In this document: one piece after another, positions 3,001 to 54,461 of the stretch
Position numbering within the stretch: the first letter of the stretch is position 1
How the letters are laid out: the number at the start of each line of letters is the position of its first letter
Assembly: GCF_004010195.1 (NCBI RefSeq)
Contig: NC_057753.1
Coordinates: 1,166,890-1,230,889 of the forward strand
Length of the DNA: 64,000 bases
Direction of reading: 5' to 3'
Source of the DNA: Chiloscyllium plagiosum
Lineage: Eukaryota
Made by a program: the position numbers and the translations under genes
Notes under the pieces: generated by a model
Told to the model about the DNA's origin: nothing
Database searches by the model: none
Seen by the model: the letters and a program-made list of their open reading frames with translations, nothing else

Positions 3001-5262
3001 TCCACAAGGCATCCTGTCCACTGTCGGATCCAAAAGACAATTAAATTCCCCCCCCCCATATTAACGTGCCGTATTCCAAAAGCACTCAACTTAGAGAAAG
3101 CACTAATCAAAAATTTGAGGGGATGTGCCATAGTTCAGTAGACGTTTAAAATGTCGTATTCCTCCCATGTATCAGGGCTTTAAGTATCACAAACCGTCCC
3201 TGCTCATCTTTCACCTGTTCTAATAATATGAATGGAAGATTTTTCTGAATAAGTCCTGCCTCTCCCCTACTTTTAGTAGTAAAGGATGAAAAGAATACCC
3301 GGTCATAACCCCCCTGTTGTAAACTCAGGTGTTCCTCATCATCAAGATGGGTTTCTGGCAACAAAGCGACATCAACCCTTTCCCTCTAAGGCTGGAAAGC
3401 ACTTTTTTCCTTTTAATAGGCGAATGCCTTCTCTTAATGTTCCAGGTGTACCATTTAATAAGACACTTAGCCATATCAATGTTCCAGGTGTACCATTTAA
3501 TAAGACACTTAGCCATATCCCCTTTCAGGCACCCTTGAACTCATCGGATGGAGAACCCTGCTTACAAAGCGCCAAACATAAATAAATAAAGACTCATAGA
3601 ATCGAAGAACAATATATACAAAAACTGCTCCATCATAACTATAAACAACTATTGCTATAAAAAAAAACTACAAAGAAAACCAACTATCGAACCTTGAATG
3701 GAAGACTCTTCCCCCTGCCCATAGTGGGCACTCACCCTATCTATCCCCTCCTGCACAGCTCCTTCAAACATGGACTGTGCCCCAGCCTTCGGCCAGAAAA
3801 AAACAAGGAGATGATCCTTTAATCAAAAGACAAAGTCAGGATGAGCACTCCACCCACCCCTGGCTTCATGTCATCCCTAATTGTGACTAAAAGAGAAGCA
3901 GAACAAACCAAAAAAAAAGAGACAACAAAGAACCTCCACAAAATTTCCCATCAGAAAATCCAGTTATTAAAAAAAGGAACAACTTACTCGAAAATCTTTT
4001 CCCCTCTTTCCAAAAAGGAAATTAGTATGGAGAAAGAAAGGAATAAAAAAATGAAGGGAAAACATGGGGAAAAATAGAAAAGAGAACAAACATCAACACA
4101 ACTTACTCGAAAATCTTTTCCCCTCTTTCCAAAAAGGAAATTATTATGGAGAAAGAAAGGAATTAAAAAATGAAGGAAAAACATGGGGAAAAATAGAAAA
4201 GAGAACAAACATCAACCATATTCTTCATGCCAATCCGTCTATTTTAAAGCGTCCACAAAGTTTTTAGCCTTATCCACTGAATCAAATGTATAAACTGAGT
4301 TCTTATGGCTGAAACGAAGTACTGCGGGGAATCTCATGGAGTACTGGATACCATGGTTCCTCAGCCTCTTTTTAACTTAATCGAAGGACTTCCTCATTCG
4401 GATTACAGCTGCTGAGAAATCCTGGGAAAAACATGATTTTTGACCCCTTGTACAGCAGCGCCTGCGGATCTTTTCCCAGGGATCTGGAAGCTTCTATGAC
4501 TTTTTGCTTGAACTTGTATGAGGACTGGGACTGGGCGGGGATGCTGCACCCACCCTGACCTGTGCACTGTAACCCGATACGCCCTTTCAATCTGAAGCCT
4601 TCTGGACTCGATGTGAAGGCCCAAAACATTCGGCAGCCAGTTTTCAAAGAAGCTGACTGCCTGCTCATCTTCCTCACCTTCAGAGAGCCCGACAATTCGG
4701 AGATTTATCCTCCGACCTCGATTTTCGAGGTCGTCGATATGGTTTCGCAAGGCCCAAACCTCTCGCTCCAGCACCTGGATCCAACTGGATGAGGACTCAA
4801 TCGCAGCTTCCGAGGCCTTAGTTCGACCCTCCACCTCCTCCAACCCCTCCCCGAGGCCCTTGATCTCCTATTCGTGCTTCTGCAGCATGGATGCAATAGG
4901 TAAGACCTGGGCACGAATCTCCCCACTGATTTCCTCAATCGCAGCTGCAACTTTCAAGATAAGTCTCTCCATCACCGCAGCCAATTCCCGTGAGTATGTC
5001 AGGTCCCTGGGGAGTTCAGGAGAGGCTGCTGCTGCTGCAGTCTCTGGTGTTGTAGGTGCTCCAGGGAGTGTCCTCCCTGCTGCTATTTGCTTGCTCCTTT
5101 TCCCTTTGGCATCTTTCCCACTCCCAAATATTAACAAATATGTGTTCTGTAAGATTTTAAACTAATATTTCCTCCATGTAAGTTGGCCAGGGATGGCAAA
5201 AAACACCGGGTCAGGCGGAGCTGTCCACAACAGTTCGACAGAATCGCCGCCAACTTGCCGAG
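1..5262 (-). mobile_element. Decayed L1-clade LINE (ORF1, spacer, ORF2); 3' end runs off the window
   Basis: ORF1 pieces 4372-5137 with the L1 ORF1 motif DDLENRGRRINLRIVGLSEGEE. ORF2 endonuclease pieces (TWNI at about 3500; LPETHL; HTRIDLFL; ISDHAAV). RT-proximal SGKAPGDGLPGEFYK (1956-2138). C-terminal zinc knuckle CPKCKISVGTLTHCFWTC (243-605). Many frameshifts. Confidence 0.9.
1328..1823. other. Assembly gap (run of N)
   Basis: 496 consecutive N inside the L1 RT region. Confidence 1.
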
Positions 5263-5885
5263 TCGTCTAAGTCATTTCTAAAAGTGACAAACAGCAGTGG
5301 TCCCAAAACAGATCCCTGTGGTACACCACTAGTAACTGGGCACCAGGCTGAATATTTTCCATCAATTACCACTCGCTGCCTTCTTTCAAAAAGCCAGTTT
5401 CTAATCCAAACTGCTAAATCACCCTCAATCCCGTGCCTCTGCATTTTGTCCAACAGCCTAATATGTGGAACCTTATCAAAGGATTTACTGAAGTCCATGT
5501 ACACCTCGTCAACTGCCCTACCCTCATCTACATGCTTGGTAATCTTTTCAAAAAACTCTATGACGTTTGTGAGACACGATCTGCTCTTGACGAAACCATG
5601 TTGACTATCTGAAATGAAATGGTTGTTTGCTAGATGATTATAAATCCTATCTCTTATAATTCTTTTTAAAATCTTTCCTACAACAGAAGTAAGGCTCACT
5701 GGTCGAAAATTACCTGGGTCGTCGCTACTGCCCTTCTTGAACAAGGACACAGCATTTTCAATCCTCCAGTCCTCTGATACTAAACGTGAAGAAAATGACT
5801 GCTGAAGTTTCAAAGCCAAAGGCTCCGTTATCTCATCCATAGCTTCCCAGAGAATCCTTGGATATATCTCATTCGGCCCAGGGAA
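5263..5885 (-). mobile_element. CR1-type LINE RT fragment, abutted by the L1 5' end
   Basis: ORF 5211-5840: NFRPVSLTSVVGK, QHGFVKSRSCLTN, YMDFSKSFDKVPH, SGVPQGSVLGPLLF. Confidence 0.9.
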
Positions 5886-8099
5886 TGTTGACGGATTTTA
5901 ACATTGCAATGACAATGAAAGAACATTGATTATATGATAAAAAAGCAGCAATGTTCAAAGCCAGTTTGCATATTAAATATATTGTTGGCTGCCCTTCTTT
6001 TCCACAGACTGAACAATTGAGCAGAAGTCCTTATTGATTGTGACAGTTCATTTAAATAAATCAGTCCAAATATAGACTTGTCTGCAAATCTGATTAAAGT
6101 ATATTTAAAAGAAGATAAGTTCAAGCTTGTGCTACATTATAGGTCGAGACAGCACAAGGTCTTAATAGTGTCCTGAAAGTGCATCTGTCCCTTTTAAAGC
6201 AAATTTCATTTTGATATACCAGTATACAGCAAGTTACATGGTAATTCTGATCGATACCAAATTTGAAAGTTCGCATTATATTGGCAGAAAGGGTAAAATT
6301 CATATTTAAAGTATAAGTAAACCTATGTTGTTTTTTGTCCAGCATTTTTTGGCTTCTAGTCAATGGAGCATTTAAAAATGTTTTTACAAGAGCCCAAGAA
6401 TTTTCCTTTTATTTTGATGCCCCTGAAAAACCTATGAGTAAATTCCCTGAATAATGCTTACTGATTGTTTGAAGAATTAAGTCAGTATTGGCGGTTTCAC
6501 TCCCGGGCAGGTATGACAGTCTTCAGTTCCTGTTTCGTTTCTGCAATGATACTAGATCTTGAGATTGGAAGAATTTAAGTGGATGTTTCTCCATTTACAT
6601 TTGTAACGAAAAATATGCAAAGTTGGATTTATGAACGTAAGGCTTTCTTGAAGATTCCCTGTTCTGAATCACTGATGTAATTGTCATCAACATTTAGCTT
6701 CGAACATCTCTTTTTTCTACAGAATAACGAGTAGAGGGAATCCTTGGTAATGCCACCTAATGGCCACAAGAATGTTTACTTCCTGGTGTAAATTTTGTTT
6801 TGGACTGTTCTGTAAAGTCATTTTGAAATTAGTTCCATGCATTTTTGCACTAATCGTAATACCTGCACCTGGTGTATTTGAGGAATTCGAGATTACTATT
6901 CTGGAATTCTATCTATGAGTTCAAGGGTGAGATAGGATAGACTTTTCTGTTACATTTCGTTTAAATGCCATGATCATTAACTAAGGCCGGGATCAGAAAC
7001 TCTGCCACTCTAGCAATATCCTACCTGATCATATGAGCAGTCAGTGATTTAACGTCAATTATGTTTTGATTTATGCTATTCAATTGCTGCAGTTCGTTGG
7101 TTTGTTGCATTTACATAAAATTCTATTTAACACTAATGCATAAAGAAGTAGAATTTAACGTGCAATTTTACAGCAGAAGTTAAGCAAACAGTTCCATTGC
7201 TTAACTCAGGCTGTATCGGGATGCAAGGAGAAGTGCAGTCACTGGCAATCGTGCCACTAATCTATGGTCTTCACTAACGAAGGTACATGTACAAACCGGA
7301 AGTAAACTTCTGGATGAGCAATGTTGAGTTCAGCTACAGAAACAAATGCAGAATGAGAACTGAGTCAAAAATAGGGCAAGACTGATTATAATCATGCTGA
7401 CCAGTCGAAAAGCATACAGTATAAATCGATCCTTGTCAAGAAACGCGAGGACATGTTTTCAGGTGAACTGTTTTTGACTCACAGTAAATTTTTATCTTAA
7501 CATGATTTCATTTTCTTCATAAAAATTTACAGGAGCATTTGCACAAAGTGAATAACTTCATAATTCAGTTGCGTACACCATTTCCCCGGATTGATTCATT
7601 CTGAAAAGAAATCTCTGTGCAACAGCATTGAACAGAACAGTTTAAATCCAAATATAATTTACATTTATGTTCAATGTTTCCAGTCTTTATATGAAAATGA
7701 AAACTTTTGTTTTCAATGAAGATAGTTTAACATTAGCAGTACGTTAAGATATTTAAAGCAATCTCCTGGCTTTATGTCACTTTAAGCCTTCGTGATTTAA
7801 ATAGTTGTCGATGATTTTTGATATATTTTGCTTTGAAGCAAGAGCAGACATTGCTTTAATTATCTTACGTTGCTTTTCTCCTCGATGATCATTGGCGAGC
7901 TATAAATTTGGCGCAGAAATGAGCAACACTAGGATGAGTGACAAGAACTGTTCGTTTTTTTATATTAGGCAATGTTGTCACTTGGAAAGGGTATGTTATT
8001 TTTCCATCTCGAATAGTCCTAAAACGTGTTAGTGACTTTTAATGTCGCTTTGAAATGGTGTCACAGACCATTCAGTTGCGTCAATGTCGAGAAAGTTGC

Positions 8100-22797: not shown

Positions 22798-22806
22798 TCA
22801 GTTAAC
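22798..22806 (-). CDS. IgNAR: IgNAR TM2 exon coding part (Val-Asn-stop)
   Basis: Strong acceptor ttttctccatgcag|GTT AAC TGA, phase 0 matching the TM1 donor. Gives a KVN* tail analogous to the Ig KVK tail. AATAAA follows. Confidence 0.7.
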   Translation of the reverse strand, partial: VN

Positions 22807-28800: not shown

Positions 28801-31800
28801 AATCCATACCATACCTCATGCACTAAAGTGTAAATCATTGATGTTCGCCACAGATAGTGAATAATTCAACACTAAGATAATTCTTCCATTCACAAAAATA
28901 CCTTTGCTTCCGATCACTGACATACTAAAATTCGCCACATTCCCATATATCCCATTGGCTTTAATTTTCTGAACAGTCTTCCAAGCTGGATGTAAACAAA
29001 TGCGTTTTTAAACCTTGTAAATATCATTCACGTACTGTCCACATGAATCACTTTGTTGCTATCACACCGAAACACATTAATTAACTTTGTAGGACACGAT
29101 ATTCGTGTCACACATTCATGCTAATCTTCCTTGATTGATCCAAGCTTTTCCCAGTGGGCTTCCATTTGATCTCTAATTATCTGTTACAATTCTCGTCACT
29201 TGTCCTGCTATGAGTTCAGGCTGACTGGCCAATCACTACATCACCTACCATCAAATCATTTTCGACACTAGAACAACATTCGCAGACTTGCAATTCTCTG
29301 GTACCCCACATGCATCGCGTGAAGATTGGAAAGTTACCCTCTGCTTATCTTTTTTTTCACTCGCACCCTTTGATCTTTATATACCTTTGAGGAGGTCTGC
29401 CTGTCCATTAACCCCTTTTTCATTGTTAGTTTATCGAATACTTCACTGTACTACTATTTACCTACATGTCTGTATCAGCTGTCTCCTTTTCGAAGACAAA
29501 GATAAAATATTCTGTAAAAAATAAATTACGGCGCTCATTTATGTTTGGGACAATCCTTTCATCAATCTTGAACCCGGGTCTCAGGCGCTGTGAGGCAGCA
29601 GTGCTAACCACTGTGCCACCGTGCCGCCCAGCTGTATCAGCTGTCTCCTTTTCGAAGACAAAGACAAAATATTCTGTAAAAAATAAATTACGGCGCTCAT
29701 TTATGTTTGGGACAATCCTTTCATCAATCACTATCTTGACCTTAAGCAAAAAAAATCCTTAATTTCTTCAGCATTGTTTGCATCCTTTCTTTGCTTTCCT
29801 AATTTCCTTTCTTCTTAGATTATCTTGGATTCTGTAGCTTCCAGCTGTTGTGACCATAGGAACAGAAATTTAGTAGATGGAGTGAAACATTCAGCTCCTT
29901 GAGCCTGGTTCATCATTCATGTTGGTGGCTGATAATCTACTTCGTGATATTTTACCACGCATCCATATTTCTGCTAATGGCATTAGCATCTAGAAATCAA
30001 TCGCTTTCTATATTGCGCATGTTGGATGAATCACATCATCTCTCATTCTTCCATTGGCTTAGGCTATAGGTCCAGTTTCTTCAGTCCCTTTTCACAGGAC
30101 AATCTGACCATTTCACAAATTTGTTATTTGAATATCCATTGGAAGGAAAGTACATCCTTACAGAAGTGAGGGGAACAAACTAAGTATTGTAACTATATAC
30201 AACCTTATCAAAACTACAAAGTTGAAGCAAGACATAGTTTCATATTTACTCAAATTTACTTACGATGAAATCTTTACACATCAACCTTCTTCAATACTTC
30301 CTTAGCAATTTGTCAAGTTTCAATCTATTCGGAACTACGAGTCCCTTTTTAGCATCAACAATTACCAATCTCTTGACCTTCATGAAATACTTCACATTCC
30401 AAATAATCCTGCCAAAGTGGATAACCTCACACTTAATCCGCAAGATAATCAATCTGCACTATTCTTGCCAGACATCCAGGCTGACCATGACAGTTTATAG
30501 CCTCTTCGTAATCTTATCACAACTCATATGTGACATTCACAATTATGGTGAAATTACATTCCTTATAATCATTGATAAAGATTATTAATAACAGCTTGCA
30601 AGCGGTATTCCTTGTGAAATCTCACTCGCAACAATATTGTAACAATCGAATGATAGTTTATTTGTTCCATTAATACCAACTCTGCGTTTTCTACAACTTA
30701 ATTAAATCTTAATTAATGATAGTGTAATATCCATGATCAAGAAATCCTGAATTCACACCAGTAAATTTCATTCGGAACAATTAATGCTCTTTATCTATTC
30801 AGGCAGCTGGATTATTCATCCGATTGAATCGTGATTACATAAGTGCTGCACATGTCACAAACTGAGCTCATTCCCATAATGAATTCGCACCTCTGCTCAC
30901 ATCCAGGGCACATTGATCTGCCTGGCTCTGAATTCTCAGCAACAGTTGAACCGGGCGGCCATCTCAACTCAACTCAAAAGCAAAACATTTCAATTTCCTC
31001 ATGTGCGTGCAATATTAGAACATCAGTGAGGTGTGTGAGTTGGCATCGATTTACCTCGGAACGGATGATGAGATTTGAAGGGATAGCAAGAGGTCAATAT
31101 TTCTCCTGTTTGCAATTTGAGACATGGGGAAAAGGAAATTCCCGATCTCATTTGCAGTTCTGCCTTCATCCAAAAGTAATGCTTCAAATAGCTGACATGG
31201 CATGGTGACTTATGCAGGTCACCAAAGAACCGAATGACGTCTAAGTGGTAAAGCCAGAATCCCTCAAATGATATAACTTTGCATACGACAAAAAAGACAT
31301 ACGATAACAGAAGAGTTTTCTTTTTATAAATCGCACAAGACTGCATTCAAAGATCCCAATTACAGTAGCAGCATCATTCTGCGATTGACAGGCTGTGTCA
31401 AATATGATCAACATCCCGTAACATGACCTCAAACATGCAACTGAAGTCACTGTACTTACTGACACTGACCTCAGCATAGACTTGAGGAAACGTCGACAGC
31501 ACAGTGTTTCTTCCATTCACGGAAGGAGCCATTGCATGGTAAGATACCACTGACCACTTTATAAATACTTTCCAACACAAAGGTAGCCTCACATACGGAT
31601 ATACAGAACAGCCAAAAGAAAGTTAGCTCTCAATCATCAATCCAGCATGAACAGAGATCACATCGTACTGAACTGACAATTGTCTACGTCCAGAGGCGCC
31701 ATATAAATGGAAATACGCCACATCCAAAAAACAAAGCAGAGTGTCTCACTCAGAGACACAATCCATTGACAGTAAATATCGCATGTCACGAACAGCAAAA

Positions 31801-37800: not shown

Positions 37801-40800
37801 ATACTTGAGCTCCACACTTGGGCAACTGATCAGGTTGTATTTATTCGTACCTCTCAGTTGAAGTCAGCAATCACTCATGCTGGACCGAAAGCAGGATTAT
37901 GAAACATTAGTTGGCAGCATTCTTCCATTTGTCATCATTAACTGTTGTCTGAAGGTATCATACCTTCAAGAGTTAATTGTGCAATGAAGAATTTAAAAAA
38001 AATCCTAACTTTTCTCATCAACCTATTTAGAAAAGTTATTACACAACTCTGGAGCCGATGACACTCGAACTCAAACCTGCCAGGTCGTTACCAATGCTGT
38101 AGGAAATGGATCCTTGTATCTGTTATATCAACGGTTCTCACACTGGTTGAAGTGGAGCACTTGGATATCATTTATTCCACGGTCTACCAACTGCCTGCCT
38201 GGTCTGTGTTAAACTTTTTTTTTCAAGGAGTTGTCGTGCATTTTAAAGTTTTCTGAATCTTTGAACATTCGATCACAGTTTCATCTAGTGTCGACATTTG
38301 ACACAAAGCATTATTTGTGAGAATAATTACTGAGGAACAGTTCTTACCATTATGGTTTCTGATAACCCTTTTCACAATGGATTGGGAAGGTGGATGCGAG
38401 ACAGTGCAGGTGTATTTTGCTCCACTGTTCCATTCTACTGCAGATAAAATGAGGAGGCTCCTTGCACTGAAAGTCAGATCCTGTTCCAGAGCAGTGGGAA
38501 AATTGGTGATGTTTGCGCTCACAGAAGCCCCGTCTTTCTCCCAAGAAATACTTATACTATCAGGATAGAATCCTCTTATCAAACATGTTAGAGTGGCAGA
38601 GCTGGTGTTTTGAATCTCTTCTGGTGACGGGGGAAATACGTGGAGATTTGGCTTAATTGGTACAACTGTAATAGAATTATAGAGAATATTAATTTTTCGT
38701 TTATGGCCATTCGTTAATAAAACGACATATAAAAACATTTCCTTTTCGTAACCAACCTCTTTGTTTTCCTGTTCGTTTTGATACTGGGGTCGATGACTGA
38801 TTCTGTTTTGCGGAGCATATGTATTCCGTCCCACTCTGCCACTCTTCCATGCTGCTGGTCAAGCGGCTGATGGTCAGATATTGGTTTCCTTCCATTTTAG
38901 CTGCTTCGATTTTAACACCATAATTCCTTACCTTCCCATCCACCATCCAAGAGATGACTACCCCAGCAGAAAGTGTAGAGAGCACTTCACAAACCAGAGT
39001 GGCAGTTTTATTGATCCAGATTTCTTCAACCAATGGATTCCTTAGCAGCACAGCAATCTCTGTTAGTGATGAATCAGAAATTCAGATTTTGGATCATGTT
39101 CCAATAATGTAACTGCGAAAGTTACAAGAGATTCGAAAATATACCTATTTCTCTCACTGATATGTATTGAACTTGAAACACGACTGTTTTCTCCATGGTT
39201 ATTGACTTGCATCACATATGAAGTGAGTGATAATTAGGGAGAGAGCGAGGTAAAGACAGACAGACTGAGAAAGTGAGATGTACGCAGAAAGATTGTCATT
39301 GAGAGAATGAGAGTGACATACCGAAGAAAATAACCAGAGAGAGGGTGAGTGTCAGACAGTATCAAAAAGACTAGAGAAGGAGGCATGGAGAGCGACCGAT
39401 GCAAGCAGAAAGACAAGCACATGGAGTAACAATGAATGATGCACAACAATGATTAATATCTACAGTGACGGGAAGGTAAAGGAAGAATTATTTTCGATAT
39501 GGACAATGGAAAACACAGAAAACGAAGAACAAGAGAAATCGGTGGAAACATACAGACGGATGGATAAACAGAGACAGAGCAAGACTGACAGTAACAAAGA
39601 GATTGATAAAAAGGAAGATTGACATTGAGAGACAGAAAATTTACCACACTGCGATGCTCAATGAATTTAAGTGCAGACGACAATTGAGATCATTATCGCT
39701 GACAAGTCACTAAAATTCTGTCCAAGAAATCCCTGCACTATAAATTGTTATTGATATCACTCACTGCCACTAGTTCAAGAATGCTTCACTCTCATATACA
39801 GACTACCAGTATAATATTCCATCTGATTATGAATATGACTATCTTTTATGATTGTGAGCTTGTGAGTACATTTAATTTTCTTACCGGATGTTGATCTAAC
39901 TTCTTTTCTCTGATTACTGTTAGTTGCAGAATGAAAAACATGACAGCTGTACATAGAGCCGCTGTTCCATTCCTGCTGGGATACTTTAAGTAAACTTGTA
40001 GAGCTGAAGTCATCGGTCGATGTTTTCATTGGGGATGTAGTTGTAAAACCAGAACTGATGACATTTTTGTTCTTCTGCCAACTGACCACAATGTTTTTAG
40101 GATAGTATCTGCTGATTATACAAATCAAATGTACAAATCCGTTTGCTCTCTTTTCTTCAGTTGCAGAATAAAATAGACTGATGACTGGTGCAGTAGGCTG
40201 TAGTCCTAAAATTACAAAAAAAATGAGACTTACTCTCTTTTGTACTTTCGATTGGACTGTTTCTGTAATGTCCCATTCAATCGATAACTCTCAGATATTA
40301 CATAAAACATATGATTTTATCATGTTGTTGTGTCATTATGTCATGTTGCTGAAAGATATGGTTCACAGCGTTTGCCTCATCTTTAACTGTGAGCTGAGCT
40401 CCAAACTGCAGAGAGTCACATAACATGGATATAGACCGTGTGGTCTAAGTCATCCATGCCAAACGGATTTCTTAAACTTGACCAGTTCAATATGCCGATG
40501 TTTGGCCTATAACTCTTCAAACCTTTCAATTTATTGTACCCTTCCAAACGCCTTTTAAATTTTATAACTGTCTATACAATTTCTTCGGCAGTAGATTCCA
40601 GAAACCAACCACATTCTGTGCAAAAAAACAAAGGTGTGGCTTCGGTCCCTTTTAAACCTTTTCAATGTCACCTTAAACCTATTCCCTCTAGGTTTGAACT
40701 CCATTATCCTAGGGGAAAAGGCCTTCGCCATTTACCTTATCTGTGTTTTTCATGATTTTATAAACAGCTGTAAGGTCACACCTTTATCTCCACTATTTGG

Positions 40801-43800: not shown

Positions 43801-46800
43801 TTAACCTTGCACAACCAGGGAGACCCAGATGACAGATATAAATACGAGTGTTCAGGATTCTGCTCACTCTAGCAGCTGGCTGTAAGCTAGCTGAGTCAGT
43901 GTCATATTGTATGAACGTGTAAATAAGGGTTGACTTCGTGATGAGATATCAGCCTTCATGGACCAATTTCAGGATGAACCCGCCATTTATGCGTAACTAG
44001 AGAGGTTAAAGACAATTTAATGAATCAAAATTGACATGATTATGCAAAGACAGATGGCAAGTCAGAAAAATACGCAAACTATCTAAATTTGCTCAAGTGA
44101 ATGATCAGAAAATTACCAAGAAGCAATATATTAGAGTTTGATAGGAAATAATCAGATAAAGATTTCCTCTAGGTATTTTGAAAAGCAAAGAGATTAACAA
44201 AGCGAGCACTATCCACATAGAAAATGAGACATAAATAGAAATTATTATTTTAAAATAAGGGAGAAGGAAAACGAACAGAACAGTTATTTCACTGGTTTTC
44301 AAGAAGCAGAATGCAAATAAAAATCTGAGAGACAGCTATAAATCAGCAAATCAGCGGAGAACAGAAGCAGGGAAGTGACATGCACAAGAGAAATTGTCCT
44401 GAGTAAATAGATGCAGCTGCGACTGACACCTGCCAGTATCCTCATGGCATCATCCCAGTGTCTGAACAGAAAATGCTCGTGAAATAACTGACTTTTTGAC
44501 TTTACTGTTACATGATATTCTTGATTCTGAAAGACCTTTAGATTGCAAGATTGATCATTTTTCAACTTTATTGGAAAATGGAGTAGACAGCGAGTAAGAA
44601 ATGACAGACAAGTCAGTTCAAAAGCTGTCATACCAAAATGTTGCAAACTATTGTTGACCAAAATGATGCATTATACTCCAGATGCATTGGATAATTTCAA
44701 GCAAATCAGTGTGAATATAATACACATGATTTTGAGAAAGGGAAATCAGATTTGAAAAGTCTCCTGGGTGATCAGGTTAACCTTACAATTGATGGTTGCT
44801 GTGTATGTTGATTTTCAGAAGACATTCAATAAAATACTTCATCTAAGTTGATGAAGACCGAAGAGGTATAATAGTAAAACAGACAGAAGAGTAACAGGTG
44901 TGAATGAGTCATTTTAAGATTGGAAATGGAGTGCAACTATTTTGCCACTTGCGTCTTAGAGGAAGACGTCTACGGTCCACTTGCCAAAGTTACTGAACTC
45001 ACAAAAATAGAAGGATCATTAAGTCATCAGCGGGCACAAAAATATGACAAAAATATTATAACGGATATGGGGAATACAATGGAAACTTCAGCACATTGTG
45101 GGAAATTGATAAAGAAAACCCATTTGACCTGAGGAATAGAGAAAAAAAATCGAAATTGTGTCAGATTTCAGAATGCTCAGGTGCAGCGGCATCATGGCAT
45201 CATAATGGATGAATCGTTTGAGATTAGTATATCTGGACTGCACGTAATTACGGGAAAAATGATGTCATTTATCACAAGAGAAAATGAACACAAATATTTG
45301 GCTGTTATTTTTCAGATAGACGAAGGTCATGCGAGATTTACATCCCTCTTCGCTGAATTGAAACCTGAATGATGCATGCATGTTGGATGTTCCATAATCG
45401 GATCTATTAAAAATATGTTTATGAAACATCAGAGGCGACGCTTAGACCATTTCTCAGTAATATGAGAAACATCAAAGGTATCATAGAGTTAATGAGTAGC
45501 AGGAGGTTGTAATTGATTTTGTTTTTAAATTACATGCCAAAATAGAGAACGTGCTTGGTCTAATTTGCAAATAACTAAAATACGTATTGCTAAATAATTC
45601 TGAAGTACGTTGGCAAATTTGTGCCAGAGTACCTTTGCGTCGTAAATTTGTTGGACTGGAAATAAATTGTACCCTACTTATGACGCCCTCATCCCATGGG
45701 AAAGTTTTACTTCAAAACCAGCGAAACAGATATATTTCAGACACAGAATGTTTATAATATCAGCAGCATACTCTGGCATTGGTGAAAAGGAAAGGAATTG
45801 CCACTAAAGAATGCCAAATTCAAAGAAAAAGTGATGTATTACAGTAAAAAAAGCTAAGACGACTGGTAAAAATGATAGAGCTCTTTAAATACTGACAGAA
45901 ATAGTAATGAAATAACAATTTGGAAACAGTGAAAGTAATTAGCTGCAAGATCATTGATGTAGGTATTAAATTCACATTTCTGGGCAATTTCGAAAATTAA
46001 ATATATATATAATTTCACTTTGAATGCAACTGACATAGACAGTAACACCCTGGTGGTATGCACTGTTTTCTGTGAGAGAAAGCAAGTATAAAATTATCCA
46101 TGAAAACCGCTGTTGGCCATTTCAGGGAAATACGGTTAGACCATAAGACCATAAGACATAGGAGTGGAAGTTAGGCCATTCGGCCCATCAAGTCCACTCT
46201 GCCGTTCAATCATGGCTGATGCGCATTTCAGCTCCACTTACCAGCGTTCTCCCCGTAGCCCTTAATTCCTCTAGACAACAAGAATCTATCAATCTCGGCC
46301 TTGAAGACATTTAGCGTCCCGGCTTCCACTGCACTCTGTGGCAATGAATTCCACAGGCCCACCACTCTCTGGCTGAAGAAATGCCTCCACATTTCTGTTC
46401 TGAAATGACCCCCTATAATTCTAAGGCTGTGTCCACGGGTCCTAGTCTCCTCGTCTAACGGAAACAATTTCCTAGCATCCACCTTTTCCAAGCCATGTAT
46501 TATTTTGTACGTCTCTATTAAGTCTCCCCTTAATCTTCTAAACTCCAACGAATACAATCCCAGTATCCTCAGCCGTTCCTCATATGTTAGACCTGTCATT
46601 CCAGGGATCATCCGTGTAAATCTCCGCTGGACACGTTCCAGTGCCAGTATGTCCTTCCTGAGGTGTGGGGACCAAAACTGGACACAGTACTCCAAATGGG
46701 GCCTAACCAGAGCTTTATAAAGTCTTAGTAGTACATCTCTGCTTTTATATTCCAACCCTCTTGAGATAAGAGACAACATTGCATTCGCTTTCTTAATCAC

Positions 46801-49800
46801 GGACTCAACCTGCATGTTTACCTTTAGAGAATCCTCGACTAGCACTCCCAGATCCCTTTGTGCTTTGGCTTTATTAATGTTCTCACCATTTAGAAAGTAG
46901 TCTATGCTTTTATTATTTTTGCCAAAGTGCAAGACCTCGCACTTGCTCACGTTAAAGTTAAACATCTTGCATGTTTACTCTAGATTTCAGCATCTGCAGT
47001 TTTTTTTTGTCTATTCCTCCCTTGCTAACCAGGGGTGTTAAATTAGCCATGTTCCAGTCCTCTGGGACTCTCCCTAATTCCAGTGATTCCTGAAAGATCA
47101 CCCTCAATGCCTCCACAATATCCTGAGCTATTTTCTTCAGAACTCTGGGGTGCAGTCCTTTCAATCGGGTGATTTATTCACTTTCAGATCTTTAAGTTTC
47201 CCTAGCACCTTTTCCTTAGTGACCAGTCAAGTGGGGAATATTCTATCACATTCCTAACTTGTGCCTTCTAGATAGTAGGCAGTTTTTGGGGAGTCAGGTG
47301 TTGAGTTATCTGCTGCAATATTCCTAGTCTCTGACCTGCTCACTGTAGTCACTGTATTTATATGATGAGTGCAGTTGAATTTCTTGTCAATGGTAAATCC
47401 CCATGATGATGATAGTGGGGGATTCAGTGATGGTAACACCTTTGAATATTAAGACGCAGTGGTTAGATTTTCTCTTATTGGAGATGCTCATTGCCAGACA
47501 TTTGTGTGGCACGAATGTCCCATGGCAAAATGTGTAAAGTTTCATTTTTCAAGACAAGCATGTGAAAAGCACATTTCTGTGAATCTTGATAACACATGTC
47601 TTCATTAGCATTTACTATAGAATTGTAGAATGACAGTAAAGTTAAGCCTCTCATCCAAAGATTTCTGTGCTGGTTCTTTGGGCGAGCTATCCCATTAACT
47701 CCATTTCCCTTCTTGTTCACCATGACCCTGTAACTGTTTTGCTCATGTGTAAACTGTCACTTAGCTAGTTAATTATAATCCCCACTGCATGACAAGAGCA
47801 TACGAATCTCGGCTGAAACTTTGGTGAATTTCTGAAGGAATGTTGCATTGTTGGAGGAGCTGTCTATCAGCTGCGATGGAGGACCGCTCTGCCCTCTTAA
47901 ATGGATATGAAAGATTCCATGATGCTGCTTCAATCAATGCCTCTGCTATTTCCTCAGCCACCTCTCTCAGAACTCTAGGGTGTATCCCATCGGGGCCAGG
48001 AGATTTATCAATTTTAAGACTTTTTAACTTTTCTAGCACTATCTCTTTCGTAATGGCAACCCTCAACTCAGCCCCGTGACACCCTTTAATTTTTGGGATA
48101 TTACTCATGTCTTCCACTGTGAAAATTGACGCAAAGTACTTGTTAAGTTCTCCTGCTATTTCCTTATCTCCCATCACTAGGCTTCCTGCATCAGTTTGGA
48201 GTGGCCCAATGTCTACTTTTGCCTGTCGTTTGTTTCTTATGTCCTGAAAGAAACTTTTACTATTATTTCTAATATTACTGGCTAGCCTATCTTCATATTT
48301 GATCCTCTCCTTTCTTATTACACTCTTTGTTATCCTCTGTTTGCTTTTGTATCCTTCCCAATCTTCTGATTTCCCACTGTTCTTAGCCACTTTATAGGAT
48401 CTCTCTTTTTCTTTAATACATTTCCTGACTTCCTTTGTCAGCCAAGGTTGTCTAATCCCTCCCCGGTTAATCTTTCTTTTCTTGGGAATGAACCTCTGTA
48501 CGTGTCCTCAATTTTACCTACAAACTCCTGCCATTTTTGCTCTACTGTCTTCCCGGTTAGCCTCTGCTTCCAGTCTATTTTAGTCAGTTCCTCTCTCATG
48601 CCCTCATAATTACCTTTATTCAACTGTAACACCATTACATCCGATTTTGCGTTCTCCCTTTCATACTCCAGATTGAACTCTATCATATTATGGTCGCTAC
48701 TTCCTAAGGGTTCCCTTACTTTAAGATCTTTTATAGAGTCTGGTTCATTGCAAAGCACTAGGTCCAGAATAGCCTGCTCTCTTGTGGGCTCCATGACAAG
48801 CTGTTCCAAAAAGCCATCCTGTAAGCATTCCATGAATTCCCTTTCTTTAGATCCACTAACAACATTATTTACCCAGTCCACCTGCATATTGAAGTCTCCC
48901 ATGATCAATGTAACCTTGCCTTTCTGACATGCTTGATTTTCATCAGTTCACCACTCCATCAAATGATTAATCAACTATTAACTGAATGACATAACGGTAC
49001 GTATATACAAAAGTGGAATCAGTTTTGGCATTAATACATTTCGAGGGGAAGTAACTGTTTTGGCAGACAATTTCATGAGTGGTCAAGTTGCGTGAAGCAC
49101 AGAAATGGAGAAAAACGATTGTTTCACTGCATTCTTTCCTGTATCCTAGAAATGTTCCCAACAAAAATTATTGTTCTCTCTTTGTGATGACATCTTGCAT
49201 ATCCGTTTTTTTTTCAGTACAATCTTCTTTTCACCGTTTTCCTTCAGACCTCTCTGGCAACACTGGGGACCAGACTAATTCCTGGGACAGCAGTATTACT
49301 TGTTAAGAGTGACTGACTCGGTTAGGAGCATATTCACTGGAGTTGAAAGGAATGAGGAAACGCTCACAGAAGTGTTTAAGCTCTAACAAGATAAAGAGAA
49401 TTCTTTTTTTTATCGAACAAATGATGAGCCGATGGGATTTTCTGCGAGAGAAATTAGTTTGGGCCAAGACATTATTTGTTTCGACAGGATTCAGATGTAC
49501 CTCTTCGGGCTAAATGAATAACATAGCATAGGGAGAAAGAGGGTACTGAACTGAATGATCTGCCAGAATCATATTGAATGACAGCAGGCTCGAATGGCCA
49601 AATAGTTTTCTGTCACTCACATTTTTAATATTTCCATGTATGAGATGGAGGTTTTTTTTGAGTTAATATCAGTTGTCACTCTGTTGAGCTGATTTGCTGT
49701 CCTGTAAAAATCACTGTATACTTTCCCTTACGGGAAAATGACAAACGGTTATTTGCTTAGGTGGCTCCATTCAGATTTGAAGTTGGAACACGTTTTAACA

Positions 49801-52040
49801 TTTTTTTTCCTGTATATTATAGCCTTTGCAGCCAGCATCAGAGGCTTGTTGCTCTGGCCGAGAAGAATGTTTCCCAAGTAGAACAAGTGATCACTGTGAT
49901 GGTAAAAATGGTCCTGTTAATAAATGTAAGCGGGGTTGTAAAATTCATATGGCTGTCAGTTTTTCACTGTAGGGAAACGTGATATTGCATAAATATTAAG
50001 TTTTCATGTTCACTAAAGCTTGCAGGTAAATAACTAAGCTACCTTTCATAAACACGGTCAGTTAAAATTAATTAATAATTTCAGGAAATTTGTCATCACA
50101 CTAACAACATTCTGCTGGAAGTTCTTAATATTCAGTTGCAGAGGGCATTACCCTCTGAAGTGTGAAATTATTCAGCGCACCCTAAAGATGCAGTAACGGC
50201 AGTTTCTTCGTTTTCATATTATTCTGTGAATGTTTAAATTGAAAAAGTTGATGTCAGTTTGAGTGGAGTGAATGGTTCGTGCTGTGGGACTGTTACCAAG
50301 GCAAAGCCCTACTTCTGTTTTGGCATTCACTGTCAATTGTTAACCACTTACGTGGATTTCGCCTCAGATCACCTCCACTAATAACTGATGTTTCCAAGCA
50401 TGCAAAAGGAAGGTAACTGCATCGCAAAAACAATGCCACTGTGCACACCTCAACTCATTGATGCTACTCATTTTGATGTGTTGATTAAATTCTGGCGTTA
50501 CGTGAGATCAAGACAAAACGTTTTGAACAGACAGGTTGCCTGGTTCGAATAAAAGAAAGGAAGCAAACAACACTAAGTGTAACGAGTGAGCCAATGAGCA
50601 AACTATTGCATTCTAAGCAACAAATATTGAACAAATGGGCATAACATGCACTTTAAATTTAAACTGACAGTTTACACTGAAACTACAGTTGCGTTAAAAT
50701 GATCGAATATTCGACACAACCTTGCATACAACAAGCTTCGAACTACAGATGTACTTGCGACAATGTTAATGCAATCGATATTATTTTACATAATAAGATT
50801 GTCTTTTGAAACACTTTAAAATTAGACGCAATAAAAAAAGTTTGCAGAAAATCTCCCTCAATGCCAAATTCTATTACTTGTTTGATTTAGAAGTTCTATG
50901 CATCTGTGGCGCACTGGCAAGCCTTAATTCAGGGTAACTGAGTAGGCTGTTTCGTTTGTAACGACTTAATTCCATTATCTACTCACATATGCATCTTACG
51001 TTCTCTATGCTAAGTTGGCTATCTGTTCAAATTGTTATATGCTTTTTTCCAGTTTAAGTTATATACTTAAACATATATTTATCCTTGAGAAAAATCTGAA
51101 CTGAGGTTAATCTACGACACATACATCACAGCACAAATATCTGAGTCTATGGGAAAATGCTCTGTTTCGCAAGTTATGCAATTGAGCCTGTTTAACCTGA
51201 ATAATAATCCTTTACAAGACATCAGCAAAATCATAGCGAGTTTAAGTAAGGGAGGAAACTTACCAGGGTTCACAGTCAGAACGGTGCCACTCCCTTTTTG
51301 GTAGTAGAACAGACAGCTATGTCCAGTTAGTCACAGTGACATATCCCATTGCAAAAATAATTGGTCGCACATAACTGTAAGTCGAACAGCAGCTCTGATC
51401 ATCTTAATGTCTCTTCTCTGGATTTGGCCGCTAAATATTGCTATCAGTCATTTGAAATCGTCTTCTGCTATTCTAGGCGACATTTGCTGGCCTCAAAGTG
51501 AATGTTGAGTGTTGAAAAGACAAGTCAAGCCCAATTTATTTCTCAGGAGATTTGATGGCGTTTTTGCATTAGTAGAACGTCAGGTTCATTACTGTGATCG
51601 TCACATGCTCCACATCTATACGTGCCACTGTCCTCAACTCTCAGATCACTAATTTTCAGAGAAAAGGACGATAATCCCTCGTTTACTGATTCAACATATC
51701 GTTCACCAGTTGATATGCTCTCCTCGTTTGTTGAGCCCAATTTTGTCCAATACCAGCCTGTGCTGTACAATCCGTAGTTAACATCTCTTAGGACGCAGTT
51801 GATGGTTAAAGATTCGCCCGAAGTTTTTGTTGCTGATCTCGGTTTTTGATCAATCCTTGAAGTTAATACATCTGGATGGGGAAAAGTATATTTAATGCAT
51901 GAAATTCGTCGATAAATAGGAAAGTTTTTAGACAAGGACATTTAAGTAACGTAAATGTGATTTTAGTTAAATAATCGTTATGAGAAACAGCACTGACTTG
52001 GTAACCTGGTTAAAAGGACTGAAAGCAAGAAAATATTCAT
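22798..52040 (-). CDS. IgNAR: IgNAR heavy-chain gene cluster, multi-exon: L-V-[DJ]-C1-C2-C3-C4-C5(sec)-TM1-TM2; requires V-DJ recombination
   Basis: Leader, VNAR, J, five C1-set exons closely resembling known shark IgNAR C1-C5, secretory tail and a CART-motif TM exon, all on the minus strand in the expected order. GT/AG boundaries, phase-1 introns, no internal stops seen. Confidence 0.97.
23860..23960 (-). mobile_element. Short Penelope-derived fragment with a degenerate hammerhead motif
   Basis: Minus strand CTGAGGA-AGGGTCACTGCATT-GAAAACGTT, same family as 9620-9800. Confidence 0.6.
24805..25020 (+). mobile_element. HE1/V-SINE-like SINE, 5'-truncated
   Basis: gcgtgggtttcc...aaagatgtgcaggtcaggttaattggccatgcgaaattg...aatctaatct tail. 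Confidence 0.8.
25440..26110 (+). mobile_element. Degraded CR1 3' fragment
   Basis: [12 protein letters not shown] remnant at about 25600-25640. Confidence 0.7.
26728..26885 (-). CDS. IgNAR: IgNAR TM1 exon (acidic spacer plus transmembrane helix)
   Basis: Acceptor ttgcag|GC and donor AAG|GTAATA. Translation [53 protein letters not shown] carries the antigen-receptor CART motif (FxxLFxLSxxYSxxVT). Confidence 0.92.
29470..29729. repeat. 98-bp direct duplication flanking an isolated SINE head
   Basis: 29470-29567 is repeated at 29632-29729 with one mismatch. Between the copies lies the minus-strand SINE 5' end gggcggcacggtggcacagtggttagcactgctgcctcacagcgcctgagacccgggttcaa (29629-29568). Confidence 0.95.
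32877..33190 (+). mobile_element. HE1/V-SINE-like SINE, near full length
   Basis: tRNA-like head ggtggcacagtggttagcactgctgcctcacagcgccagagacccggcttcaattcc, central domain, and tctaa-type tail. Confidence 0.9.
33971..33976 (-). terminator. Candidate polyadenylation signal, secreted form
   Basis: AATAAA on the minus strand about 320 nt after the secretory stop codon. Confidence 0.65.
34298..34680 (-). CDS. IgNAR: IgNAR C5 exon plus secretory tailpiece
   Basis: Acceptor tttacag|TC. Translation [36 protein letters not shown]...[42 protein letters not shown]. Internal donor G|GTAAAC after 34360 serves TM splicing. Tail has an NVS sequon and a penultimate Cys. Confidence 0.97.
35216..35536 (-). 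CDS. IgNAR: IgNAR C4 exon
   Basis: Acceptor ttttcag|AT and donor G|GTAAGT; 321 nt. [48 protein letters not shown]...[22 protein letters not shown]. Confidence 0.97.
38348..38665 (-). CDS. IgNAR: IgNAR C3 exon
   Basis: Acceptor tattacag|TT and donor G|GTAAGA; 318 nt. [36 protein letters not shown]...[19 protein letters not shown]. Confidence 0.97.
38757..39059 (-). CDS. IgNAR: IgNAR C2 exon
   Basis: Acceptor ctaacag|AG and donor G|GTTGGT; 303 nt, with a 91-nt intron to C3. [28 protein letters not shown]...[22 protein letters not shown]. Confidence 0.96.
39885..40205 (-). CDS. IgNAR: IgNAR C1 exon
   Basis: Acceptor aattttag|GA and donor G|GTAAGA; 321 nt. [46 protein letters not shown]...[29 protein letters not shown]. 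Confidence 0.97.
46135..46960 (-). mobile_element. Young CR1 LINE 3' end in the J-C1 intron
   Basis: Open 245-aa frame [12 protein letters not shown]...[19 protein letters not shown]...RRLRGDLIE...WNSLP. Terminal 8-mer repeats (gaccataa on plus) at about 46139-46156. Confidence 0.95.
47935..48930 (-). mobile_element. Young CR1 LINE segment (endonuclease C-terminus to RT linker)
   Basis: IMGDFN...[15 protein letters not shown]...GSSDHN (48438-48908) and [15 protein letters not shown] (47773-48390). One frameshift. Confidence 0.92.
51264..51331 (-). CDS. IgNAR: IgNAR D-J segment, apparently germline-joined
   Basis: 68 nt: A CTA ACT GGA CAT AGC TGT CTG TTC TAC TAC CAA AAA GGG AGT GGC ACC GTT CTG ACT GTG AAC CCT G|GTAAGT = [22 protein letters not shown]. 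Has the J motif GxGTxLTV and a perfect donor. Confidence 0.93.
51332..51359 (+). promoter_or_regulatory. 12-spacer recombination signal sequence 5' of the DJ segment
   Basis: Heptamer CACAGTG (51332-51338), 12-nt spacer (51339-51350), nonamer GCAAAAATA (51351-51359). Confidence 0.93.
51559..51596 (-). promoter_or_regulatory. 22-spacer recombination signal sequence 3' of V
   Basis: Heptamer CACAGTA (51596-51590), 22-nt spacer, nonamer GCAAAAACG (51567-51559). Confidence 0.92.
51597..51871 (-). CDS. IgNAR: IgNAR variable (VNAR) exon
   Basis: Acceptor ttttccccatccag|AT. (N)[91 protein letters not shown]. Shows the short FR2/CDR2-deleted VNAR architecture. Confidence 0.97.
51998..52040 (-). CDS. 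IgNAR: IgNAR leader (signal peptide) exon
   Basis: ATG AAT ATT TTC TTG CTT TCA GTC CTT TTA ACC AGG TTA CCA A|GTCAGT = [14 protein letters not shown], matching the known IgNAR leader type [14 protein letters not shown]. 126-nt phase-1 intron to V. Confidence 0.95.
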
Positions 52041-52134: not shown

Positions 52135-52167
52135 TTATAAACCTTACGTGATTGTCTTTATTTGCAT
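52135..52167 (-). promoter_or_regulatory. V promoter: octamer plus TATA-like box
   Basis: ATGCAAAT (52167-52160) lies 20 nt upstream of TATAA (52139-52135), which is about 95 nt upstream of the ATG. Confidence 0.8.
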
Positions 52168-52242: not shown

Positions 52243-53415
52243 ATCTGGATTAGTGGTGCTAGAACAGCACAGCAGTTCAGGCAGCATTCGAGGAGCAGTA
52301 AAATCGACGTTTCTGGCTAAAGCCCTTCATCAGGAATAAAGGCAGAGAGCCTGAAGGGTGGAAAGATAAGCTAGAGGAGGGTGGAGGTGGGGAGAAAGTA
52401 GCATAGAGTACAATAGGTGAGTGGGGGAGGGGATGAAGGTGATAGGTCAAGGAGAAGGGTTGAGTGGATAGATGGAAAAGAAGATAGGCAGGTAGGACAA
52501 CTCATGGGGACAGTGCTGAGCTGGAAGTGAGATGTTCCCTAAGGCGCTCTGCTAGGAGGCGCCCAGTCTTCCCAATGTAGAGGAGACCGCATCGGGAGCA
52601 ACGGATACAGTAGATGATATTAGTGGATGTGCAGGTAAAATTTTGATGGATGTGGAAGGCTCCTTTAGGGCCTTGGATGGAGGTGTGGGCACAGGTTTTA
52701 CAGTTCCTGCGGTGGCAGGGGAAAGTGCCAGGATGGGGGGGTGGGTCGTAGGGGGGCGTGGACCTGACCAGGTAGTCACGGAGGGAACGGTCTTTGCGGA
52801 AGGCGGAGAGGGGTGGGGAGGGGAATATATCCCTGGTGGTGGGGTCTGTTTGGAGGTGGCGGAAATGTCGGCGGATGATTTGGTTTATGCGAAGGTTGGT
52901 AGGGTGGAAGGTGTGCACCAGGGGCGTTCTGTCCTTGTTGCGGTTGGAGGGGTTGGGTCTGGGGGCGGAGGTGCGGGATGTGGATGAGATGCATTGGAGG
53001 GCATCTTTAACCACGAGGGAAGAGAAATTGCGGTCTCTAATGAAGGTGGCCATCTGGTGTGTTCTGTGGTGGAACTGCTCCTCCTGGGAGCAGATACGGC
53101 GGAGGCGGAGGAATTGGGAATACGGGATGGCATTTTTGCAAGAGGTAGGGTGGGAAGAGGTGTAATCCAGGTAGCTGTGGGAGTCGGTGGGTTTGTAAAA
53201 AATGTCAGTGTCAAGTCGGTCGTCATTAATGGAGATGGAGAGGTCCAGGAAGGGGAGGAAGGTGTTAGAGATGGTCCTGGTAAATGTAAGGTCAGGGTGG
53301 AATGTGTTGGTGAAGTTGATGAATTGATCATCCTCCTCGCGGGAGCACGAGGTGCGGCCAATGGAGTCATCAATGTGGCAGAGGAAGAGGTGGGGAGTGG
53401 TGCCAGTGTATGTGA
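52243..53415 (-). mobile_element. Penelope-like element, 5'-truncated (RT C-terminus, GIY-YIG endonuclease, terminal repeat with hammerhead motif)
   Basis: ORF 52502-53449: HIDD..., LPFLDL, YKPTDSHSYLDYTSSHP, Cys motif PCHRRNCKTC, NIIYCIRCSRCGLLYIGKTGRLLAERLREH. Hammerhead core CTGATGA...GAAACGTC at 52333-52306. Confidence 0.93.
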
Positions 53416-54461
53416 ACATATTAGTAAAGTAATGAAGTAAACAATTCATTGTAGATTGAGTAAATTTCCACGCATCAGGCTAGATGACATGTGCTAAATT
53501 TCCTTCTTTATTAACTTGATAATTTTTGAATTTCTTATCCGGGAACACCTGCAATGATAAGACAGCGAACTCATGCTCAAAGGCCACAGTTGAATAATTC
53601 CGATTGAAATCACACACACAGTGCTCTCTGACAATGGAGTGGCCACCCAGCCGTGTCTATGAATGCCAAACTGGTCTGAGACGTGACAATAGAAACATGT
53701 TTGGTGTCTCCCTTCCCTTCATAATCTGGTCTGAAATATATATTGAAATTAAGAATGTCTTTGAACATTTAAATAGTACTGAAAATAAATGTTGATCTTT
53801 AAGAATTCAAAATTCAGAAGTGAAGAGTAAAGATTCAAAAAGAACAGAACACTGTAAAGGCAAAAACAAGAGACGATAGTCAGCAGGTTTACAAATGGAT
53901 AGAAACATCACGCAGGATTTGCTTCTGTGGAAACCTCTGTTGACCTCTGTTTCAGCGATTTGGATGTCAACCTCAAGTGAGTGCTCCTGAAATTTGAATA
54001 ATGTATTCAAGTACACATTTTGATTAACAATTTAGGAAAAAACAATCAAAGAGAAAACGATAAAATGGAGCAATAATCTTTAAGTCACGATTACTTGTGG
54101 AAATTTTGCCGTCTTTAAACAAAAGAGCAATGTTATTCCTTTGAATTAGCAGACGTTTGATGCTTTGAAATGGAAGGATTTTTTGAGAATACCTTTAAAG
54201 CATGATAGAACTCTAAAATAAACACATGAAATTCCAGTTAATTTTTAAAAATTATGAAATCAGCACAAATTAGGACAAATGATTAATCAAAGATAATATA
54301 CCATATTTCGACAGTTCAGAATTCGAATCCACCCAAGAGTTTGAAGATTATGAGTTCAAAGCCGATATCAGAGATTCTGTATAATGAGGACTGGCATGTG
54401 GATGTACCGGTATGGGGAATGCATGAAATTTGCTATTTTCATTGCTCAAAGACCAAAGAAT

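Follow-up and report, generated by a model that had tools for sequence, protein, structure and literature searches.

Germline joining of gene segments has been described in shark antigen receptors, and the closest known counterparts of the locus analysed here are of this kind. Nurse-shark type III IgNAR has a germline fusion of D1 and D2 and a third complementarity-determining region (CDR3) of restricted length and composition, and it is described as neonatal, with a proposed early-life role (PMC4622739). A germline-joined IgM of neonates, IgM1gj, is also known (PMC5192425). Among the seven IgNAR clusters catalogued in the bamboo shark, IgNAR2, 5 and 6 carry pre-joined D segments and 22-nucleotide (nt) spacers; IgNAR6 is preferentially juvenile, IgNAR1 makes up 96% of the blood repertoire, and 18.8% of sequences are of new types (PMC8692893). 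Two bamboo-shark genes, VNAR3 and VNAR4, have been called 'conserved' and are the least expressed (PMC12138067). The present work concerns 64,000 nt of the genome of the bamboo shark Chiloscyllium plagiosum (NC_057753.1, positions 1,166,890 to 1,230,889; this whole stretch is called the window). Its minus strand holds an intact IgNAR cluster consisting of leader, V, one germline-fused D-J, five C exons, and secretory and membrane tails. An original prediction made from this DNA had proposed that V and D-J each supply one cysteine to CDR3, outside the standard types of the variable domain (VNAR).

Disulfide bonds within CDR3 of VNARs are described only as extras in type I domains in the accessible text of PMC6260137. 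A single clone from a semi-synthetic dogfish library, the 'atypical type 1' P4BH8 (PMC2213646), has two CDR3 cysteines without cysteines in framework regions (FR) 2 and 4, as in the window gene. The same is true of horn-shark type V (PMC6576789), which has in addition a CDR1 Cys pair and long variable loops. Neither is described, in the accessible text of the two papers, as germline-programmed or invariant. In the nurse shark, about 30% of sequences have been reported as non-classical (PMC6312525).

Results

One V-to-DJ join and two inherited CDR3 cysteines

We consider it probable that a single V-to-DJ join in this cluster gives a near-invariant CDR3 of 16 residues, in which two germline-encoded cysteines with seven residues between them likely close a disulfide ring that encircles the one variable junction. 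The elements on which this reading depends are these (RSS, recombination signal sequence):

51597..51871, minus strand: VNAR V exon, 275 nt; Pfam V-set domain, best 30 PDB matches all VNARs, 75 of 83 residues identical to the C. punctatum gene model P0005
51603..51605, minus strand: V-encoded CDR3 Cys (TGT), three residues past the canonical Cys (IMGT 107), read from the sequence; on strand F in the model and at the same position in the shark sequence P0158
51559..51596, minus strand: V RSS with a 22-nt spacer, from the signal scan; transcript junctions start at the signal edge
51332..51359, plus strand: 12-spacer RSS before the fused D-J, from the signal scan; transcript junctions start at the signal edge
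51264..51331, minus strand: germline-fused D-J, 68 nt, without internal RSS; spliced to C1 in runs X9, X14 and X16
51313..51315, minus strand: D-J-encoded CDR3 Cys (TGT, about IMGT 112), read from the sequence; conserved in P0005

Leader and V together hold three cysteines, namely that of FR1, the canonical one of FR3 (TGT, 51614-51612) and the one at the V end (51605-51603). CDR1 (D-V-N-Y-G-L-Y-S-T) and FR2 contain none: by alignment, the column of the type II CDR1 Cys is Tyr (TAC, 51776), and that of the type I FR2 Cys is Gly (GGC, 51758) in the window and Asp in transcripts. V stops at a codon boundary (51597), directly abutting its RSS, and 265 nt further along comes the 12-spacer RSS of D-J. 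D-J begins with one extra base, carries its Cys codon in the J frame, encodes an FR4 without Cys, ends at a GTAAGT donor and has stops in both non-J frames, so that a productive join requires a net change of -1 or +2 nt. The sequence thus agreed with the original prediction on both the placement of the cysteines and the frame of the join. RSS scans of the window gave no further paired signals, which implies a single joining event.

The presence of this arrangement in germline DNA was checked in public runs by the share of sequence words from 51264-52040 that each contained. Eight of the 24 listed runs (4 samples, 2 studies) contained 0.66-0.95 of these words, of which exons alone explain at most 0.40; the unjoined layout is therefore not peculiar to the assembly, and an assembly artefact is unlikely. 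Two cysteines within 16 codons are not rare by themselves (crude null, 0.12); the case for the pair rests on its retention in transcripts and its conservation in other sharks.

A cryptic GT in V and AG in D-J (51621 to 51317, minus strand) would permit an in-frame splice without rearrangement, with the D-J Cys replacing the canonical Cys. This in-frame splice is the one found in the gene model of C. punctatum; it was absent from the RNA joints, and we took it as a prediction artefact.

Junctions in transcripts

Four of the 24 listed public runs (X9, X14, X16 and X22) were aligned to the window. The run records list no RNA type; we treated X9, X14 and X16 as RNA-derived because their contigs are spliced. 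X22, a single-cell RNA run of which about 6% was read, gave 0 aligned reads. In X9, one contig was spliced from leader through V and D-J to C1, with V untrimmed, a 1-letter insert and D-J starting from 51329, and one rearranged contig in X14, likewise spliced to C1, had an untrimmed V, a 3-letter insert and D-J from 51327 (insert lengths derived from record coordinates). Both joins are net -1. Transcripts of this V, which the original prediction required, were thus found in three runs.

Run X16, which resembles an amplicon repertoire, yielded 3070 aligned contigs and 14 junction rows. V had lost 0-6 nt and D-J 0-7 nt in these rows; reaching the Cys codons would take losses of 7 and 17 nt, respectively, and both codons were whole in 14 of 14 rows. 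Routine trimming of at least 7 nt from V, which would have removed its Cys, was therefore not seen. Twelve of the 18 X16 inserts were shown, 11 in frame and one out of frame. All 11 in-frame inserts were net -1, with a 16-residue CDR3, Cys-X7-Cys spacing and mostly Leu or Ile at the junction, and in-frame forms accounted for 97% of the shown junction depth. The same CDR3 length occurred in X9 and X14, which come from two studies besides that of X16. The expected loop of about seven residues was thus exactly seven in the net -1 form, and the net +2 form with its extra residue was absent among the 12 inserts shown. This agrees with the narrow CDR3 length and retention of both cysteines that had been predicted.

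The junction varied at one or two codons only. Substitutions in the two Cys codons stayed below 2 in 100, and position 51757 was the sole V site to vary at that level. The deepest X16 insert was an exact palindrome of the untrimmed V end, as expected of P nucleotides. An independence test had suggested selection for length (0.002), and this interpretation was rejected, since the junction rows connect to one another through single substitutions.

We found no natural rearranged protein of the locus among 4 matches of 6 candidates, 3 of 83 and 8 of 669, or in the seven VNAR-like rows inspected among 150 representatives listed; the exact V was absent from the collection.

Related sequences in other sharks

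P0005 (GCC21074.1) is the ortholog in C. punctatum, with identity at 75 of 83 positions in V, 15 of 18 in D-J and about 96% in the four C exons compared. It keeps the D-J Cys; the V end is skipped in this gene model by an apparent false intron, which hides the position of the V-end Cys. The whole cluster is open in two Chiloscyllium species.

A second relevant sequence, P0158 (MetaClust UPI0000E27C85), is a rearranged, full-length secretory IgNAR of 661 residues. It shares with the window gene the same five V-end residues, including the Cys, and a Cys pair confined to CDR3, and it has no CDR1, FR2 or FR4 Cys. Its CDR3 of 19 residues differs in placing the second Cys 12 positions after the first (11 residues between them), with no His in the loop; it is one sequence only. 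The P0158 framework is closest to PDB entries 1VES, 2Z8V and 1VER, which we take to be wobbegong clones, and from its framework and C1 we infer that P0158 is wobbegong-like. A V-end Cys matched by a D-side Cys, as judged from the sequence, is thus present in a second shark, with a longer loop.

In a V tree of 14 rows (P0161, P0025, P0162, P0050 and P0069 were left out), only two groups were resolved: the window V together with P0005, and a trio from other sharks. We also considered the V-end Cys as compensation for a recent Cys-to-Tyr change in CDR1, and dropped this idea on finding the Tyr also in germline V genes that lack a V-end Cys (P0012, P0025).

AlphaFold models were available for the window V alone, unrearranged, and for the P0158 V domain, both without sulfur distances. 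In both, the top of strand F carries the V-end Cys.

Remaining exons and surrounding elements

The rest of the cluster is laid out as follows:

52160..52167, minus strand: octamer motif upstream of the leader, likely a promoter element; found by sequence, and weak as a single match since the window contains 10 octamers
51998..52040, minus strand: leader exon, 43 nt (14 codons plus 1 nt); open, 14 of 14 residues identical to P0005, spliced from 51998 to 51871 in run X9
39885..40205, minus strand: C1 exon; open, C1-set, 102 of 106 identical to P0005
38757..39059, minus strand: C2 exon; open, C1-set
38348..38665, minus strand: C3 exon; open, C1-set, 102 of 105 identical to P0005
35216..35536, minus strand: C4 exon with a linker Cys; open, C1-set, 102 of 106 identical to P0005
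34298..34680, minus strand: C5 exon and secretory tail, with a penultimate Cys at the end; open, C1-set, 122 of 126 identical to P0005
26728..26885, minus strand: transmembrane exon 1; open, hydrophobic, GT-AG flanks
22798..22806, minus strand: likely transmembrane exon 2 (Val-Asn-stop), predicted from sequence; same C-terminus as P0161

Every exon of the cluster is open and bounded by proper splice sites. Upstream, the X9 contig extends to 52092, and a polyadenylation-type motif (AATAAA or ATTAAA) lies near C5 at 33976. No second V was found within the 64-kb window. Beside the octamer there is a motif like a cyclic AMP response element at 52151 (both within 52167-52144), without a clean TATA box. 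The leader (52040-51998) has an Arg late in its hydrophobic stretch, a feature shared with the identical C. punctatum leader, and the mature N-terminus of the window V is unlike the usual VNAR start; given this N-terminus, common FR1 primers may miss this V. C1 (39885-40205) has two cysteines, and nurse-shark C1 has been reported with three (PMC11641339).

Part of a Penelope-like retroelement, including a GIY-YIG domain, lies at 52505-53479 (minus strand), about 340 nt upstream of the octamer. Fragments of reading frames resembling those of long interspersed elements (LINEs) occur in the J-C1 intron (46231-48947) and near the window start (246-5897). A short piece resembling a short interspersed element (29430-29759) sits between copies of a duplicated stretch of about 85 nt, recognised by its repeated translation, and a 496-base assembly gap occupies 1328-1823.

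Discussion

The window gene is an IgNAR and a member of none of types I to V as these are defined, as the original prediction had suggested. Its V domain is of the VNAR type (a short V-set), its five C exons are C1-set, it has a secretory tail with Cys and a membrane tail, and it is somatically rearranged and spliced to C1 in X9, X14 and X16, with the one-base difference at 51757. It departs from the canonical V-D1-D2-D3-J arrangement with four joins in having only one RSS pair and one fused D-J, and it is not a NAR-TCR, in which a NAR V is joined to the V and C of T-cell receptor delta, as its D-J splices to IgNAR C1. It shares the two CDR3 cysteines of type I and lacks the FR2 Cys (Gly in the window, Asp in transcripts) and the FR4 Cys. 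At the column of the type II CDR1 Cys it has Tyr. Type III has a CDR1 Cys and a conserved CDR1 Trp, a CDR1-CDR3 bond and a fusion of D1 and D2 only, leaving three joins; the window gene has neither of these CDR1 residues, all of its D and J are fused, leaving one join, and both of its extra cysteines are in CDR3. It does share with type III a restricted CDR3 length and composition, one length being found in 11 of 11 in-frame inserts shown, which come from rows that are not independent. The frameworks of type IV or IIb (PDB 1VER, 1VES, 2Z8V) are the closest solved V domains and, like the window V, have only canonical framework cysteines and none in CDR1; 1VER also shares the Gly-Ala after the canonical Cys. 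Type IV, however, has no extra Cys anywhere, whereas two are inherited and retained in CDR3 here. The CDR1 Cys pair that type V has besides its CDR3 pair is also lacking. With its restricted repertoire the window IgNAR is, by analogy, closest to type III in the way it works, and in the geometry of its loop it likely resembles type I.

The locus probably belongs to the pre-joined, 'conserved' clusters already catalogued in the bamboo shark. IgNAR2, 5 and 6 and VNAR3/4 share with it the genus, pre-joined D, 22-nt spacers, five C exons and low diversity, a match by description only, as the accessible text on them gives no sequence, Cys pattern or junction analysis. To that extent the original prediction overstated its novelty: pre-joined 'conserved' clusters were already reported in Chiloscyllium, and CDR3-only Cys pairs were already known from single clones. 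In the literature, of which figures and some key papers were beyond reach, we came across no report of a CDR3-only Cys pair that is programmed in the germline, and nothing on the CDR3-only Cys pattern in the accessible parts of PMC11641339, PMC12907318, PMC10532743, PMC13474390, PMC11432006, PMC7677710 and PMC12227049. Within the literature covered, an inherited, split Cys pair that would close a fixed ring of seven residues appears to be undescribed; transcripts from three studies and a second shark sequence now stand behind it.

Several observations weigh against our reading of this locus, beginning with the transcripts. All three transcript sets have T at 51757, where the window has C (changing Gly to Asp before the FR2 Trp), and the C1 start of X9 is one base off the window, while those of X14 and X16 match it exactly. 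These differences would be expected if the transcripts came from a near-identical sister cluster of the same design, with the window copy a silent or rarely used duplicate, and in the accessible text of PMC8692893 one of the three pre-joined-D clusters (IgNAR5) is missing from the expressed list. We think such a source improbable: 51757 is the single V difference in 275 nt, the window's exons, splice sites and signals are all intact, the C1 starts of X14 and X16 agree with it, and the best DNA runs miss 0.05 of words, about the loss from one substitution (0.04), which fits, as judged by word content. As the C. punctatum ortholog also has Asp at this codon, the Gly of the window appears to be a private allele or an error in the assembly, either of which is likelier than a sister cluster. 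The junctions themselves must also be read with care. The 11 in-frame forms and a blunt join make up one network of single substitutions around three hubs, and rows linked in this way are not independent, so that near-invariance is seen in them and selection for length is not demonstrable from them; mutation or polymerase chain reaction (PCR) error acting on a few primary joins may account for the set. The summed depth of the joint rows is about 12,600 units, compared with several hundred thousand for V and D-J. Contigs lose rare variants, 12 of 18 inserts were shown, there were 13 loose ends, and the frame was indeterminate in 4 of 14 rows. A paralog with VDJ fully joined in the germline, diversified by point mutation and with no somatic joining, would account for one CDR3 length, for variants one substitution apart and for the difference at 51757. 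This strikes us as very improbable in view of the one out-of-frame junction among the 12 inserts shown, of the deepest insert, which matches the P-nucleotide palindrome of the V end exactly, and of the several deep hubs that differ at junction codons while only 51757 varies elsewhere in V at 2 in 100.

The remaining difficulties concern the loop and its purpose. The loop of the P0158 model that holds its second Cys is of low confidence (pLDDT 59 for residues 91-100), and P0158 was not grouped with the window V in the tree (support 33/23). In a regular hairpin, position 107 would oppose about 115, not 112, so the loop must bulge. Intra-loop pairing is nevertheless the likely state, as no partner exists in CDR1, FR2 or FR4. 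The cysteines might instead be free thiols, form an inter-chain bond in the IgNAR dimer or bind metal with the loop Asp and His; the imperfect register and a loop composition of Cys, Asp, Asp, His and Cys lend this some appeal, and the bond itself is a prediction from sequence. We judge it quite unlikely, however, since secreted Ig domains oxidise neighbouring cysteines, and since the pair is present both here and in P0158, where the loop differs in length and lacks His. An intra-loop bridge has also been proposed for a clone of the same pattern (PMC2213646). A more general doubt is that the cluster is a neutral relic, an accidental germline fusion, weakly expressed, whose fixed loop follows from joining mechanics and frame rules, without any ligand or life stage to which it is dedicated. 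Some three primary joins, together with point changes, suffice for the junction variants, and the dominance of IgNAR1 in blood (96%; PMC8692893) and the low expression of VNAR3/4 (PMC12138067) would fit such a relic. Yet the cluster is open in two Chiloscyllium species with the D-J Cys kept, and the in-frame share of shown junction depth (97%) suggests use as a B-cell receptor, although decay of out-of-frame RNA would do likewise; we regard a relic as unlikely.

If the two cysteines do close a ring around a near-invariant junction, the following sequence of events can be proposed. RAG would join the 12 and 22 signals, and slight trimming, the addition of 1-4 P or N nucleotides and the J-frame requirement would funnel the products into the net -1 form. 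In the oxidising secretory pathway, the two free cysteines would then bond with each other. By strand alternation, the V-end Cys would point to the former light-chain face, next to the site of the FR2 Cys of type I. The bond would then drape the loop across this face, in a manner close to that of type I, and present a rigid, nearly fixed ring. The product would be a natural antibody of low diversity for one fixed ligand, working as nurse-shark type III does and differing from it in chemistry; by the same analogy we infer that it may be an antibody of young animals.

It is possible, if doubtful, that the finding extends further: carpet sharks may have an additional VNAR type, in which the V-end Cys takes over the tether of the CDR1 or FR2 Cys, and bamboo sharks may have frozen it by D-J fusion into a nearly monoclonal early-life natural antibody, whose disulfide-closed loop of seven residues serves one conserved microbial or self ligand. 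About 19% of bamboo-shark (PMC8692893) and about 30% of nurse-shark (PMC6312525) sequences are left unclassified by the typing scheme, to which the locus would contribute a class defined in the germline. It would also offer a natural scaffold, in which a constrained loop of seven residues sits on a framework that has no other free cysteines. The ligand of germline-joined, semi-invariant shark antibodies is an old open question. Here the repertoire is reduced to a handful of near-identical single domains, so that one or two recombinant proteins would be enough to seek that ligand, map the disulfide and solve the fold.

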